Assembly: GCA_963699545.1 (NCBI GenBank)
Contig: CAVOUE010000012.1
Coordinates: 64,001-128,000, forward strand
DNA from: Nitrospirota bacterium
GTDB taxonomy: Bacteria; Nitrospirota; Thermodesulfovibrionia; Thermodesulfovibrionales; UBA9159
Direction of reading: 5' to 3'
DNA: 64,000 bases
The stretch's first letter is position 1. The number at the start of each line of letters is the position of its first letter. The notes beneath the pieces were generated by a model. The model did not search any database. It saw only the letters and a program-made list of their open reading frames with translations, and was not told the origin of the DNA. This document shows, piece by piece, positions 41,803 to 49,521 of this stretch. The translations under genes and the position numbers were made by a program.

Positions 41803-42264
41803 CTATCTCCTGTCCTTAAAGAACGTCTTCAGTATCTCAGCGCACTCTTCCTCGAGGATACCGGATACGACCTCCACCTGATGGTTCAATCTCGGATCGC
41901 TGAGCACGGCATAGAGGCTTTCCACAGCCCCGCCTTTGCTGTCCGGACAGCCATAGACGAGCCTGCCCAACCGTGCGTTCACCATGGTGCCGGCGCACAT
42001 GATGCATGGCTCCTTGGTCACATAGAGGGTTGCATCTGATAACCGCCAGCTGCCGATGATTCTCGCACCCTCACGTAGTGCAATGACTTCCGCATGGGCA
42101 GAGGGGTCGTTCAACCTTTCCCTCTGGTTGTGCGCCCTCGTGATGATGTTCCCCTCAATAACGAGCACAGCACCCACCGGCACTTCCCCCGCGGAAGAAG
42201 CGAGCCCGGCTTCTTCCATGGCCACCTTCATGAAATGGAGATCCTCTTCTTTGTTGTTGTCCAC
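41803..42264 (-). CDS. tadA: tRNA adenosine(34) deaminase
   Basis: GEVPVGAV, AHAEV, EPCIMC, RLNH. Confidence 0.95.
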   Translation of the reverse strand: MDNNKEEDLHFMKVAMEEAGLASSAGEVPVGAVLVIEGNIITRAHNQRERLNDPSAHAEVIALREGARIIGSWRLSDATLYVTKEPCIMCAGTMVNARLGRLVYGCPDSKGGAVESLYAVLSDPRLNHQVEVVSGILEEECAEILKTFFKDRR

Positions 42265-42314
42265 AGAGATCCTCGCCTTCTTCAGTTCAAGACACGCGTC
42301 CCCGGCGTCATGCT

Positions 42315-43704
42315 TCAGCGCAGATCATTCAGGAGCCTCTGGAATTCCTTGGACTCTGCAAGTATGCGGTGAGCCGCATCCCGCAATTTATCCACTTCCT
42401 GCGGTTCCAGACTGAAGGATGTGGGAAGCCTCTTGAAATACCACCGCTCGTGCTCGTCCTTCAGGGCATCGAACTTCACTTCGATGATGTAAAATTCAAT
42501 ATCGCCGCATGACCCGGGCACGGTGGATACTTTCCCGTCAGGGCATCTCTGCCTCCGCACCTGTGCAGTCCACCCCTTCAGGCTTTCCTTCAGCAGCGCC
42601 ACCGTTTCGACATTGTACCGTTCGATGGCTATGGACGAATAGGATTCCAGCATTGCAGCAAATGCCGGAGGGCTCTCCATACGATCCCAGAAGGAATCGG
42701 GTTGGGTCTCGGCGTTCACCACAATAATCGCAACCTTGTGCACATTCTTATGATGGGTATCTTTGATGGTTCTCCCAGAAATCTCCCCTGAAAATTATTC
42801 TGTCAAGGATACCCCTGAGACCGAGGTTGTCCGCAATTCCCCCGTCCAGAAGATGAAGGTAGGGTTTCTTCTCCGGGTTCAGATAAGGCGCAATGTTGCT
42901 CGCGAGAAAGAACTGACGTTCCGAAATCTCACCCTTCTGCAGGACCCTTTGCAGGGCATCCGGCATCCGGTAGTCGCACGCGCCGGCAAAATTCCGCACG
43001 GTAATGGGGGTCAGAAGGAGAGGGACCGCGGACGAGGCGGCCACCGCTCTCGCCACCGGAAAAGTTGACAGGTCTGAGCAGAGGATGTCGAACATGTCCT
43101 GGGTGAACTGAACCCTTATGCCGTAGGTCATATCAGTGGCGTTCATGATGATCATCGGCCCTTTTCTGGCTGCGATGTCACCGAAGGTGCCGCCTTCGAA
43201 GATATACCTGTCATAGTACTCGGCTGCCAGATCGCTCCGGTCAAAATGAGGGGAGAAGAGCCGGACCCAGTTAAGAGGATTAAAGAACGTTCTTGAGATA
43301 AGAGCCCCCTGAATATTCTGCTTCAGGAACTTCGCCTCAAAGTCCTCAAAAATGCGCTCGCCGAAGAGGCCGTAATACCCGGCGGTGAAACTCCCGCCAG
43401 ATACACTCGATATGGCGTCCACCTCATCCAGAAGCCGCCGTTTCTTCCCGTCGATCATAATATCTGTCTTTGCCAGTTCTTCAAGGACACCGTACGAGAA
43501 TGCTGCGGCACGCGTTCCTCCACCGGAGAAGGTCACAAAAAGGAGCATGTCATCGGATTTCCCCGGCACCCTCATGTTCTTGCCCCTGTATCCTTCGTCA
43601 GGATCATAGTGCCTGAGCCTCTCATTGACCGGGTAATGTGCACAGCCCTGAACAAACAGGACAGCCGCCACAAGACCTGTGCAGAGCCATTTGAGCACGT
43701 TCAT
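42315..43704 (-). CDS. Patatin-like phospholipase lipoprotein (frameshift near 42770)
   Basis: Lipobox VQGC, SGGGTRAA, SVSGGS, DGG; second ORF piece continues to LPTSFSL. Confidence 0.85.
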
Positions 43705-43884
43705 CCGCTCCTTCCGAAAGAAGTACGCACACTGACTATCATCAATGACGCTCGTTTTTTCAGTATATCACAGTGTGTCTGATGGAGGGATTAGGGAACG
43801 GGTACAATTACTGCACAGCGAAAGGGGCCTGGTCATCCAGGCCCCTCTTTTTCGATCAGCCTTTCGGGCAAAGAGATGTCAATT

Positions 43885-44310
43885 CTACCTGTTCACAACC
43901 TCAAGAAGGTTTTGTGCTGTCTCATTGTTCAGCGCCGTCTTTTCCCCCGCAATTTCAGGCCACCTCTTGTTCAGTTCGCCTGCCGAAGAGAAAAGAACAC
44001 TGTCTTGCAACTCCCTGAGAGTACCCTTCAGGAATTTGTTCTCCTCTTTCAGCTTCTCATTCTCCTCAAGGGCCTTTTCGTGCCTCGTGCGTGGGACAAA
44101 ACCGAGGATGATATAAAAATCGATCAGCTTTTCGAATATCTCGGGTGCTTTAGGGATCAAGAAATCTCTGCCGTAAGACAAGCTCCAGTAATTCTTTGCC
44201 GATGCGATGCCTCCCTCCTGCATATCCCTGAAAAACTTGAGGAGCCCCATTTTGAAAAGAGGCATCCCAAAGAGATGGTCGATGTCATTGATGTCTTCTT
44301 CTTTTAACAT
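43885..44310 (-). CDS. Hypothetical protein with coiled coil, downstream of a GEMM riboswitch
   Basis: 141-aa ORF, RBS GGGGGAAG, ALEENEKLKEENKFLK heptads. Confidence 0.75.
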   Translation of the reverse strand: MLKEEDINDIDHLFGMPLFKMGLLKFFRDMQEGGIASAKNYWSLSYGRDFLIPKAPEIFEKLIDFYIILGFVPRTRHEKALEENEKLKEENKFLKGTLRELQDSVLFSSAGELNKRWPEIAGEKTALNNETAQNLLEVVNR

Positions 44311-44394
44311 TTCTTCCCCCCATTCACCCGTACGGTTTACTGCGGTGGTCTTTTATCAGGCAATCCCCCGAAAAAAGGCCGAACATACCCAAGG

Positions 44395-44480
44395 TTCTTC
44401 CTTCGGCAGCCCAGCCATCTTCCTTTAAGACCTGTTGCTTTCCGTCCCCTTCTCACGAAGGGTTTGGTTTTATCGGGAAA
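44395..44480 (-). ncRNA. GEMM-I cyclic dinucleotide riboswitch, probable c-AMP-GMP (GEMM-Ib) variant
   Basis: Minus strand CCCGATAAAACCAAACCCTTCGTGAGAAGGGGACGGAAAGCAACAGGTCTTAAAGGAAGATGGCTGGGCTGCCGAAGG: AAACC..GNRA..GGGACGGAAAG P2, P3 receptor stem, GCCG 3' end. Confidence 0.88.
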
Positions 44481-44608
44481 CACCCCTTACCACCTTTTAT
44501 CATGGAAAAGTATACCTGTCAAGGGGTAATTCCAGGGCTCTGGAAGACGATGGAAGGCATTTTTTTCAGAGTATTGATAGCGCCGTGTCAAGGAATCAAG
44601 TCAACAAA

Positions 44609-44725
44609 AAAGGGGGCTGCAAGCCATGTATAGCACTCGCACCCCCCGTTGTAACTCTTCGAATCTCTTACGAAAAGTACTGGCGCGCCCTGAGGGATTC
44701 GAACCCCGCCCCGCGGATTCGTAGT
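44609..44725 (-). pseudogene. Degenerate duplicate of the tRNA-Arg 3' half plus downstream terminator (att-like)
   Basis: Direct repeat of 46959-47076, ending just past the ACG anticodon. Confidence 0.85.
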
Positions 44726-44773
44726 TTCATCCGTGTGCACCTGACCGCTCAAAGATCCAGCCTGTGATTTCCG

Positions 44774-46267
44774 CTAACGCTTTATTTCCCCCGAGGCCGG
44801 CACCGCGCGCTTGAAGGCCCAGGCCTCGATGCTTGTTATCTGTTCATTCATGGTCACCGAAAGAGGGACGGTCCTGCTCAGAGTTGCCAGGAAATCCTGT
44901 TCGCCCACGGGACGCTTCTCGGCAAGGGCCTCGAACGCCGCTGACTTGACGACCTGCTCGATCTCAGCCCCGGAAAGGCGTTTGGCCAATCGCGCCAGAA
45001 GCAGGATATCAATCCCGGAAGGATCGATATCCTGCTTCTTCATATGAATGCGGAATATCTCTGCCCGCGCCTTCTCATCGGGAAGTCCCATGTAAAATAT
45101 CTCGTCGAAGCGTCCCTTGCGCAGCACTTCCGCGGGAAGCATCTCGATGGCATTGGCGGTGGCGGCCACAAAAACAGGCGCCTTCTTTTCCTGCATCCAC
45201 GTCAGGAAAGACCCGAGGACCCGGGAAGCGGCGCCTCCTTCAGCCTTGAACCCCTCCGATGAAATGCCGGCCTCGATCTCGTCTATCCAGAGGACACAGG
45301 GCGCGATCGCCTCTGCAATCCTGAACGCCTTGAGCAGGCTGGTCTCCGGGGATCCGAACGCCCCCCCATACACAACCCCCATATCCAGACGGACAAGGGG
45401 GAGACGCCACCGAGTGGCGATCACCTTGACGAACAGCGATTTGCCGCAGCCGGATATCCCCATGATCAACACCCCCTTCGGCATCTTTGCACCGCTGGAG
45501 ATGTTATCCAGGCCGAAGGCCGTTTCACGACGCTCCAGCCATTTCTTGAGGTTTTCTATCCCGCCCAGATGGTCCAGAGTGGCATCATTGGCGACAAAGC
45601 CCATGATGCCGCTTTTTCTGATGATCTGCTGTTTGGTCTCGAAGAACGCCCGAACGATTTCGCTGTCCCTGCTGACCTGAGATTGATTAAGAGTGCGGAT
45701 GGTACGTTCGATGTCTTCAAGATAAAGCCCCTGGGCCGCCACTACCAACCTCCCCACCAGCTCCGGATCAGCGGCACAGGCCTGCGCCAGCAGCGGAACA
45801 CGTCCTTTCAGGAGCTCCAGATGCGCCTTGATCTCTGCTATGGCAGGAAGCCCCTGGTAGAGGATAACGAGGTCTCCTCTCAACGGTTCCGGCACAGCAT
45901 CCTCTTCACTAATGACAATCAGTACCTTTGATCGGGCCCGCACGGCAAATTCTTTCAGCTTTCTGATAATGAACGGGTTATTTCCCCAAAATCTGTATAG
46001 GTCCTTGAAAAGAAAGATGGCGGGTCCCGGCTGCGCGATCGCGAAATCGAGCGCCGGCAGAGGCTCTACCGTCCCATTGACCGATGCTTCCTCCCGGACG
46101 AAACCTTCGGTGCAGGTCCATACATAGGGGCTCCCCGCCCCCTTCACGCGCGCGGCGGCCTGTGCCACAATTCCTTCCGTGTACCGCTCGTTATCGGTAA
46201 CCACATAAAATAAGGTGGTTCCGGCCTCGATCATTCTCAGCAAATCCTGGACATTCAGGCTTTCCAT
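44774..46267 (-). CDS. AAA+ ATPase, Ycf46-like
   Basis: [45 protein letters not shown]. Confidence 0.85.
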
Positions 46268-46958
46268 TATCCTCCCGTTAAGGCAAGCTCACTATTGGCA
46301 TTACTTTCTCGTTGTACCATGCACCATTATATCAGGTTTCAAAGGTGTCACGTTTCAGGAAGAAGTGGAAAGAACTTCTTTATCAACGTTAATGATCCTT
46401 CATCCCTTCCTTTTCGGAACCCTGGTTCCTGAACTTCAATGCGGATTGCGAATTTCGGATTGTGATGACACCGGGCGACCTCGATCGGGCCGGGCTGGAT
46501 GAGCTTGGCCGGAAATGGGAGTGAAAGTCTTTGTCTCTGGTAGCTATCACATAGGCTTCAAACCCCGCAATGAAAGCCGAGTGTTCTTTCTTTTACCGTA
46601 ACCGGTTGAATATATTAGCAAGCTCATATGCCTTTAGAGGTTTAATATGCTGTCTGACACGAAACCTCGAAGAAGGATCAAATTTCCCGGCTGTGAGCGC
46701 TGCGACTTTAATCATAGAGTGTTTGAGAAGTTATCATAGCCTCACTTGTCGCAATCGCCGCTGCCCTTGTTCTGCATTACCTGAGGTCTTCTTAAGTTTC
46801 TTACATTGCCTCCCTGAAGTTTGTTCCTCTTGGAAGCGGGAATACCTGATATCTTTCGACAACAGACATCCGCGTTTTTGGGCGCTTCCTTAAGAAGTCT
46901 TTACATAAGCAAGTTCACAGTAATCCTCATGTGAATCAATCAAAACACAATCTCGTAT

Positions 46959-47000
46959 AAAGGGGGCTGCAAGCCATGTATAGCGCTTGCAGCCCCCTTT
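46959..47000. terminator. Hairpin terminator downstream of tRNA-Arg
   Basis: AAAGGGGGCTGCAAGC-N10-GCTTGCAGCCCCCTTT. Confidence 0.8.
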
Positions 47001-47030
47001 ATACCTCTTCGAATCTCTTACGAAAAATAC

Positions 47031-47107
47031 TGGCGCGCCCTGAGGGATTCGAACCCCCGACCTGCGGATTCGTAGTCCGACGCTCTATCCAGCTGAGCTA
47101 AGGGCGC
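47031..47107 (-). tRNA. tRNA-Arg(ACG)
   Basis: GCGCCCTTAGCTCAGCTGGATAGAGCGTCGGACT-ACG-AATCCGCAGGTCGGGGGTTCGAATCCCTCAGGGCGCGCCA. Confidence 0.97.
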
Positions 47108-48313: not shown

Positions 48314-49521
48314 CTATTCCGATGATGTCGTATAACATTTGTCCCCCTGGTCCTTCTCATCCCAGCCCCCGGCAAAAGGAGATATCTCCCTTAACCTCTT
48401 TATGATAGGCGGGAATTCCACAAGGAGATAATCAATATCGTCATCGGTATTCTCCCTCCCAAGGGTGAAGACGATGGATCCCTGGGCAAGGCTTGAGGGT
48501 ATTCCCATGGAAAGCAGGACCGGAGAAGCCTTCAGCGCCTTGGAAGAGCATGCGGAGCCGCTTGCGACATACATACCCTTGGATGCAAGGAGGAGGAGCA
48601 TGGATTCCCCTTCGATGTACTCCACCGTAAAGCTCGCGTGTCCGGGAAGCCTGTCAGCGGGATGACCGGTGAGATACACATTGTCCACGGACAGGACGCC
48701 GCTGATCAGCCTGTCCCTCAGTTTTTTCACTTGCTCCATCCTTTCCTTCATCTCCTGCTGAGCAAGCTCGGCCGCCTTTCCCATTCCCACGATGGCGGGA
48801 ACGTTCTCGGTGCCTGCCCTCCGCCCGCTTTCCTGAATGCCTCCGTAGATCAGGGGGACGATCCGTAATCCTTCCCTGACATACAAGGCCCCTGCGCCCT
48901 TGGGTCCATAGAACTGGTGAGCTGCCATGCTCAGGAGGTCAACCCCCAGTTCCTTCACGTCCAGGGGGATGTTCCCCGTGGAAGCGACTGCATCGGTATG
49001 GACGATCACGTTGTGCTCTCTTGCAATGTTCGCTATCTCTTTCAGGGGCTCTATAGTCCCGACCTCGGTGCTGGCATGGATCACTGAAAGAAGGATCGTC
49101 TCTTTCGTAATCGGCTTTCTTCACCGCATCGGGTTCTACCATACCATGCTTGTCAGCAGGGAGATAGGTAACGACAAATCCGGACTTTTCGAGGAACCGT
49201 GCAGAATTGAGGATCGAGTGGTGTTCCATTCTCGAGACGATAATGTGTTTTCCCTCATTCTGCCTCGCCAGGGCGATTCCCCTCAAGGCGAAATTATTGG
49301 CCTCAGCTCCGTTGCTGGTAAAGATAATTTCCGAGGGCTTCGCATGAATGAGGGCCGCTGTCTGGCCCCTCGCATTTTCTATCGCATTTCTCGCCTTCAT
49401 CCCTGCTTCGTAGAGGCTGAGGGGATTGCCGAACTCTTCCTTGAAATAGGGCAGCATGGCCTCGAAGCACCTGGGGATGCAGCGGGTTCGTTGCAACATA
49501 GTCGAAATAGCATTTTCTCAT
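48314..49521 (-). CDS. iscS: Cysteine desulfurase (two frameshifts, near 49470 and 49115)
   Basis: YFDYVATNP, FGNP, HTDAV, AHQFYGPKG, RAGTEN, SGSAC across three frames. Confidence 0.88.

Follow-up and report, generated by a model that had tools for sequence, protein, structure and literature searches.

The window analyzed here, a stretch of 64,000 nucleotides from a Nitrospirota bacterium (contig CAVOUE010000012.1, positions 64,001 to 128,000), carries on its minus strand a short gene preceded by a structured leader (Table 1). The initial annotation had placed an open reading frame at 43885-44310 and a GEMM-I aptamer upstream of it; the frame has exactly these coordinates, and the quoted letters of the aptamer are found at this site on the minus strand. 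The gene and its leader belong to an accessory islet, which sits between a gene that we take to be tadA-like and tRNA-Arg(ACG). In four of the five relatives searched, the islet is missing from this site and its flanks are 24-194 nt apart. At 44678-44725 (minus strand), 2.3 kb downstream of the tRNA gene, the 3' part of tRNA-Arg(ACG) is repeated, joined to a degenerate 5' part; repeat and tRNA gene enclose one AAA ATPase gene (44774-46267), and the copy looks like an att repeat without an integrase. It should be noted that the reading frames of several genes are broken in two, both in the window (42315-43704 and 48314-49499) and elsewhere in the source genome (G000:C3:726780-727254, C7:74221-74716, C3:190917-192800). 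The split genes encode a patatin, a cysteine desulfurase, a GGDEF, an HD-GYP and a CBS protein; such splits suggest that the assembly contains indel errors.

Table 1. Features of the riboswitch locus and of the candidate cyclase gene (coordinates refer to the window unless a contig of the source genome, G000, is given).
Feature	Position	Strand	Basis
GEMM-I / c-di-GMP-I aptamer (P1, P2 with GUGA loop, P3)	44401..44478	-	RF03167 and RF01051 scores
A20 specificity nucleotide (= Gs1761 A14)	44468	-	Rfam alignment; Gs1761 numbering checked base by base
Partners of A20: A47, C92, pair C21:G46	44441, 44406, 44467:44442	-	Rfam alignment; Gs1761 numbering
Predicted sigma70-type promoter: -35 TTGACA (44522-44517), 17-nt spacer, TG-extended -10 TAAAAG (44499-44494)	44494..44522	-	read from sequence
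Intrinsic terminator hairpin, 16 bp; 5' arm = aptamer P3 3' strand and P1 3' strand	44377..44416	-	folding energy, orthologous leaders
Terminator U6 tract	44371..44376	-	sequence
Gene of 141-aa all-helical protein	43885..44310	-	predicted model; 22 homologues
Accessory islet, ~4.8 kb: patatin, gene, riboswitch, tRNA-Arg 3' repeat, AAA ATPase	42252..47027	.	flank comparison
tRNA-Arg(ACG)	47031-47107	-	
Candidate Hypr GGDEF domain	G000:C5:389611-390084		Ser348, GGDEF, Ser at cross-dimer position 304
GAF-Hypr GGDEF gene (L012)	G000:C5:388700-390105		single-copy; orthologues L103-L117, L178-L191

The aptamer (44478-44401, minus strand) is a genuine GEMM-I (c-di-GMP-I) riboswitch aptamer. It scored 66.9 bits against RF03167 (gathering cut-off 59, E = 1.2e-13) and 61.4 bits against RF01051 of clan CL00126 (gathering cut-off 35, E = 1.6e-11), the latter being the c-di-GMP-I covariance-model match that had been proposed as a check, and none of 14 control genomes passed the Rfam cut-off. 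In the Rfam alignment, A44468 falls on the first G of GGCAAACC in the consensus. All 12 named positions of the Geobacter riboswitch Gs1761 (G8, A9, A11, A12, A14, C15, G40, A41, A42, G74, C75 and C76) are identical in the window, in the numbering given in the consulted part of PMC6274999. The A14 of Gs1761 corresponds to G20 of Vc2 (PMC6140456, in the part consulted), and thus the two placements agree with the earlier claim that A44468 is the equivalent of Vc2 G20. The pocket is that of GEMM-Ib, i.e., A20 with A47 and C92 kept. We take 21 and 46 to be the Vc2 numbers of the pair 44467:44442, the window having been placed via Rfam and Gs1761 rather than by alignment to Vc2. Membership in the c-di-GMP-I-GGC variant (RF03167) was considered and rejected: the pocket reads A20/A47/C92, with A at the two positions that are G in the model consensus. 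The name "GGC" presumably denotes the pocket triad G20/G47/C92, which is also visible in that consensus; therefore, the top score on RF03167 reflects likeness of scaffold only.

The 115-nt leader is more stable than expected (z = -3.42), and none of 200 shuffles was as stable. A promoter-like site lies upstream, the terminator overlaps the aptamer, and the open reading frame begins 91 nt downstream. A simple consensus scan called neither promoter nor terminator in the leader; the pattern TTGAC-N15/16-TGnTA occurs in the 62 nt preceding the aptamer in 22 of the 76 host-family copies, compared to 0.055% of random 62-nt windows. The initial annotation had described an ON switch in which GCCGAA of the aptamer pairs with TTCGGC (44383-44378) before a U run. 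The TTCGGC and the U6 tract (44376-44371) are indeed there and the ON logic holds; however, the pairing register has to be replaced. The GCCGAA/UUCGGC hairpin reaches only -8.0 kcal/mol with a pair probability of ~0, compared to -22.9 kcal/mol and ~1.0 for the hairpin 44416-44400/44394-44377. The strand before the U run favors the P3 3' strand over the GCCGAA strand in 38 of the 41 aptamers that have a U-rich tail among the 78 host-family copies, and the opposite was seen in one. Among 13 orthologous leaders, 97.6% of 208 cells are paired in the 16-bp register, with 10 one-sided and no two-sided changes; the GCCGAA register reaches 93.6% and shuffles were uninformative, so pair counts cannot separate the two registers. 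The terminator and the aptamer are mutually exclusive, and the terminator pairs the ligand-pairing C44406. Since this nucleotide is sequestered in both registers, the ON logic does not depend on the choice between them. Thus, the leader is a transcriptional ON switch with its terminator in the P3/P1 register 44416-44400/44394-44377. The riboswitch of pilM behaves alike, as an ON switch whose terminator excludes the aptamer and sequesters the ligand-pairing C (PMC9262584, in the part consulted).

The regulated protein has 22 homologues, and 49 representatives were collected by profile. Neither it nor its homologues matched a Pfam or NCBIfam family at cut-off, and none of them matched a phasin profile. 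The AF2 model is all-helical at low confidence (pLDDT 68.5), a Foldseek search with this model yielded no PDB fold match, hhalign of the family to PhaE gave nothing, and the best match in the ESM Atlas (0.85) is a lead only. The initial annotation called it an uncharacterized coiled-coil gene; the gene is not a blank, its family being linked to operons of class III PHA synthase. Relatives of the gene occur at 14 GTDB loci, all from Nitrospirota and several from Thermodesulfovibrionales. In 11 of them, the family heads the order gene-neighbor-phaE-phaC, and a twelfth has the neighbor gene with a thiolase and a reductase, i.e., a PHA context in 12 of 14. The operon identities rest on TIGR01836 (499 bits, cut-off 365) and PF09712. 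The neighbor protein stays below the Phasin_2 cut-off (22.6 versus 24.9 bits), and this Phasin_2-like protein aligns to the C-terminal helix of the 141-aa family (hhalign 84%, E = 7.4e-6). All six host-family genomes with a class III phaC are among the eight that carry the family; the source genome and G006 have the gene and no phaC match. As class III phaC was not found in the source genome (3.04 Mb, 87% complete), the link of this particular copy to granules is indirect. The genomic context of the family suggests that the protein is phasin-like and probably PHA-granule-associated, and that the gene may have left a phaE/phaC operon and come under riboswitch control. The family resembles known PhaE/PhaC operons in preceding a Phasin_2-like gene, phaE and phaC; unlike phasins, the 141-aa protein has no Pfam phasin match, and its clade stands alone behind a riboswitch.

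Several further arrangements involving this family were observed. The domain of the regulated protein is fused to a CRP-type regulator in the source genome (G000:C10:63909-64805), next to a gene for a reductase that shares 62% identity with a reductase of the PHA clusters. In two other proteins (P0032 and P0034), it is joined to PilZ or to CZB-PilZ. At Thermodesulfovibrionia loci (L123-L134 and L148-L172), class III PHA synthase clusters include small helical genes, two or three of them, and a possible small DNA-binding gene; a literature search found no description of such Thermodesulfovibrionia clusters.

We compared position 20 among orthologues and across the class. Relatives of the gene occur at 43 metagenome loci, of which 40 were scanned with Rfam (L175-L177 were left out). 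A GEMM-I aptamer over the cut-off is present in 12 of the 13 closest loci and in none of the other 27, so that the leader is shared by the nearest homologues. Of 13 full leaders, that of the window among them, nine have A and four have G at position 20. The closest orthologue (L135) has G20 in a leader that otherwise agrees closely with that of the window. The proteins encoded behind such leaders group on a single branch (99/97), and at least two A/G changes are forced by starred branches inside it. Consequently, the earlier proposal that cGAMP signaling in this lineage turns the gene on is not borne out as a property of the lineage, since four of 13 orthologous leaders, the closest included, carry G20. 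The 78 host-family aptamers comprise 58 with G and 20 with A at position 20, and none with a pyrimidine; position 19 is about as variable (59 A, 17 G, 2 U). On a tree of 67 host-family cassettes, the A/G state shows no clustering (14 changes, compared to a mean of 14.5 after shuffling); this tree has poor resolution, with 8 of 64 branches starred, and forces only three changes. The source genome has five A20 copies among its nine GEMM-I copies over the cut-off, compared to 15 of 69 copies elsewhere in the host family (p = 0.043, the copies not being independent).

Class-wide, sequence patterns yielded 48 A and 334 G matches, i.e., an A20 share of ~13% (48/382). It should be noted that these patterns recover about half of the known aptamers (10 of 20 A, 29 of 58 G), that reversed-pattern controls gave six and five matches, and that none of the 10 doubtful A matches passed Rfam, G matches being taken unfiltered. 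The A20 share is 39/310 in families with a Hypr-type cyclase and 7/68 (7 A, 61 G) in family f5, which gave no Hypr match (Fisher p = 0.69); five of the seven A matches in f5 were kept and all five pass Rfam. A20 was therefore rejected as a marker of Hypr presence, and the test for a dedicated regulon failed, A20 being neither constant in the 13 orthologous leaders nor tied to Hypr presence. For comparison, 12 of 17 GEMM-I riboswitches of G. sulfurreducens bind cGAMP, as reported in the consulted part of PMC8835794.

Other A20 elements were noted in the course of this survey. In family f5, A20 GEMM-I is conserved before secreted fibronectin-like repeat proteins, with no Hypr match (L204, L205, L207 and L208). 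In three genera, an A20-G21-C22 subtype with a separate downstream terminator precedes a receiver-domain gene (L023, L024 and L025); unlike in the cassette of the window, A20 is stable in this subtype. A chaperone-usher operon of the source genome has paralogous SCPU pilin genes preceded by A20 and G20 aptamers, which are arranged in series (G000:C3:707278-708836; L001 and L008). OmcS-like hexahaem cytochrome genes follow A20 GEMM-I in the Hypr-positive family f13 (L225:1493-2832, L226, L228 and L229; E = 1.4e-98 to 6EF8) and G20 GEMM-I in another genome (L055 and L063, G007). The f13 leaders, a close parallel to Geobacter omcS, are perhaps better cGAMP candidates than the switch of the window.

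A GacA-like Hypr-GGDEF gene, which the initial annotation suggested searching for, is present in the source genome with complete signatures. Among eleven GGDEF matches in ten genes, one has Ser348 with GGDEF, eight have Asp and one is degenerate. Hypr enzymes are characterized by Ser or Thr at 348 with GGDE[F/Y], and a non-Arg residue at 304 goes with mostly cGAMP production (PMC6456294, in the part consulted); the candidate has all three signatures, and hence the GAF-GGDEF protein is likely a cGAMP synthase. Its best PDB match is the GacA domain of G. metallireducens (6D9M, 172 bits; next structure 111), a lead of 61 bits. The candidate thus resembles GacA (Gmet_1914 in G. metallireducens, GSU1658 in G. 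sulfurreducens) in Ser348, GGDEF and non-Arg 304, and differs from it in an N-terminal part made of an unassigned domain and a GAF domain, in its location, and in being frameshifted in the assembly. The gene lies between what are presumably secA and a small-GTPase-like gene. The frameshift is a 1-nt insertion, a single extra T; as other genes are split likewise and the GAF-GGDEF protein is full-length in 14 of 15 orthologues, it is likely an assembly error.

A similar Hypr domain was detected in 237 of the 390 class genomes, nearly always once; Ser348 with GGDEF was present in all 30 of the 237 genomes in which the residues were read. The domain is absent from families f5 (0/68), f9 (0/22) and f11 (0/21). 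In eight Hypr-negative genomes, no Ser348 was seen, all 41 inspected GGDEFs having Asp (41 of 47 matches at E <= 1e-25, six from G103 being excluded; a distant GGDDF-type enzyme could escape this search). Four host-family genomes have Hypr and no GEMM-I at all, and hence cGAMP may also have a receptor that is a protein. A CD-NTase was rejected as a source of cGAMP, as the source genome has no SMODS match. The cGAMP-specific HD-GYP enzymes of the PmxA type are recognized by an RxxQ/N motif (10.1101/600031, in the part consulted), which was not found among the eight HD_5 matches in the source genome: by pattern, four have RxxR or RxxK and one RxxS; among the remaining matches, one was read as RPYR by eye, one has no motif and one comes from a split gene, of which it is the front half. 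A large kinase-receiver-GGDEF hybrid with Asn348 and a degenerate GGDAF (L019, G000:C10:142166-145261) adjoins an HD-GYP gene.

What an A at position 20 means for ligand choice differs among published cases, which range, in the consulted parts of the papers, from ~1200-fold selectivity for cGAMP to a 15-fold preference for c-di-GMP. The initial annotation took G20A variants to prefer cGAMP. This is true of Gs1761 and Gm0970, and untrue of Vc2 G20A (c-di-GMP 53 nM, cGAMP 120 nM) and of Clostridium beijerinckii Cbe 1-2 (30 nM and 463 nM, a 15-fold preference for c-di-GMP), as given in the same portion of PMC6140456. In Desulfobacca acetoxidans, the A-bearing paralogue binds cGAMP much better and c-di-GMP perhaps slightly less well (PMC9481103, in the part consulted). 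The Geobacter switches (Gs1761 before pgcA, Gm0970 and pilM) resemble that of the window in fold, in A20 and at the 12 positions named in the sources, and their genomes have a Hypr cyclase, for which the source genome has a candidate; unlike them, the window is from Nitrospirota, its A20 is a minority state of the class that toggles among orthologues, and its target is a cytoplasmic phasin-like gene rather than a cytochrome or pilus gene. Vc2 G20A, Cbe 1-2 and the cluster-3 aptamer of Desulfobacca share with the window an A20 on a scaffold that is shared with G20 siblings; in the consulted part of the report, Desulfobacca has one A paralogue among near-identical G paralogues. Unlike these bispecific RNAs, the genome of the window combines a candidate Hypr enzyme with five A20 aptamers, and the switch of the window lacks a tandem AdoCbl riboswitch.

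The reading that we prefer, at a probability of roughly 45%, is that of a transcriptional GEMM-I ON riboswitch with an A20 pocket that answers to cGAMP and c-di-GMP, not to cGAMP alone. Relatives with either A or G at position 20 make a dual response likelier than one to cGAMP alone; the dual reading is also suggested by the bispecificity of published A20 RNAs that are from outside Geobacter or made by mutation, and by the similar A20 share with and without Hypr. Transcription would start ~10 nt before the aptamer. In silico, without ligand, the segment 44394-44377 is predicted to capture the P3 and P1 3' strands, C44406 included, and to form the 16-bp terminator before U6. A dinucleotide bound in time would lock the aptamer and let the polymerase read into the gene, by analogy with the pilM riboswitch. 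Judging from signatures, cGAMP would be supplied by the secA-linked GAF-Hypr GGDEF, and c-di-GMP by the eight Asp-type GGDEF genes. Position 20 would be labile and serve for G/A tuning, having switched repeatedly on a single cassette of promoter, aptamer and terminator, and the output would be a phasin-like, probably PHA-granule-associated protein.

Against a dual response, the A-rich state of the source genome could reflect selection for cGAMP here, and the match of all Gs1761 contacts together with the weak natural P1 may favor cGAMP, since a P1 of this kind is described as possibly favoring it in the consulted part of PMC6140456. The rival closest to the initial annotation is a GEMM-Ib switch with more than 10-fold selectivity for cGAMP over c-di-GMP, driven by Hypr within a five-member cGAMP regulon. 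Such a switch is conceivable, though on the whole somewhat unlikely. The complete Hypr signatures, with a similar domain in most genomes of the class, the majority of A20 among the copies of the source genome and the 12 matched positions argue for it, as do the A20 leaders before OmcS-like cytochromes in another Hypr-positive family, an arrangement known from Geobacter omcS; however, omcS, itself a GEMM-Ib target, has a riboswitch that is reported as dual in the consulted source. The G20 of L135 and three further orthologues speaks against selectivity, and so do the five f5 genomes that have A20 aptamers over the Rfam cut-off, no Hypr match and Asp in all inspected GGDEFs. Two genomes of the same family with A20 copies also gave no Hypr match; an HD-GYP with RxxQ/N is lacking among the five pattern-read matches and not evident in the other three; and the A20 share of ~13% across the class is far from the 12 of 17 cGAMP binders reported for G. 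sulfurreducens.

Conversely, the switch could respond in practice to c-di-GMP, with G20A as tolerated drift, c-di-GMP bound via a protonated A20 and cGAMP acting through other receptors. We consider this unlikely. The preference of Cbe 1-2 for c-di-GMP in the consulted report, the comparable A/G variation at position 19, the four host-family genomes that have Hypr without GEMM-I, the frameshifted Hypr gene and the PilZ fusions among relatives of the regulated protein are all in its favor; on the other hand, A20 confers real cGAMP affinity in each measured case in the published sources consulted, the frameshift is a single extra T in an assembly where other genes are split likewise and nearly all orthologues are full-length, and A is enriched in the source genome. 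That the element is a non-functional relic, or A44468 an assembly error in an A-run, is highly improbable. Frameshifts in the assembly, the location on an accessory islet and the missing phaC could be cited for it; however, promoter, aptamer, terminator and open reading frame are all intact, A also occurs in eight other orthologous leaders from separate metagenome contigs, and three other A20 copies in the source genome follow G rather than an A-run.

GEMM-Ib riboswitches, bispecific A20 RNAs and Hypr enzymes have already been described, and, as the riboswitch class and its A20 variant are known also outside Geobacter, a single RNA of this kind is ordinary. Among the titles and abstract beginnings searched, we found no report joining cGAMP riboswitches or Hypr with Nitrospirota or with phasins and PHA. 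The string "Nitrospir" is absent from the main text of PMC6456294, 10.1101/600031, PMC9140294, PMC9481103 and PMC5473149, and from eight supplements of PMC6456294; Nitrospirota entries in Kellenberger 2015, Nelson 2015 and Hallberg 2016 are possible, as these papers lay outside the search.

As a Hypr-signature cyclase is conserved over most of an anaerobic class, Nitrospirota may also have the cGAMP pathway. Leaders with different bases at position 20, such as those of the window and L135, provide ready pairs for the question of selective versus bispecific A20. The target family, with its PilZ and CRP fusions, ties cyclic-dinucleotide control to PHA storage and gives an unannotated family a testable role. 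A bolder and quite unlikely proposal is that Thermodesulfovibrionia run a Hypr-cGAMP pathway via the single-copy, secA-linked GAF-GGDEF that most of the class retains, that single G/A changes in a mobile cassette re-assign genes between c-di-GMP and cGAMP, and that cGAMP here selectively switches on a PHA-granule protein. If true, it would link cGAMP to carbon storage and would offer a natural series of near-identical aptamers for the study of selectivity beyond A20.
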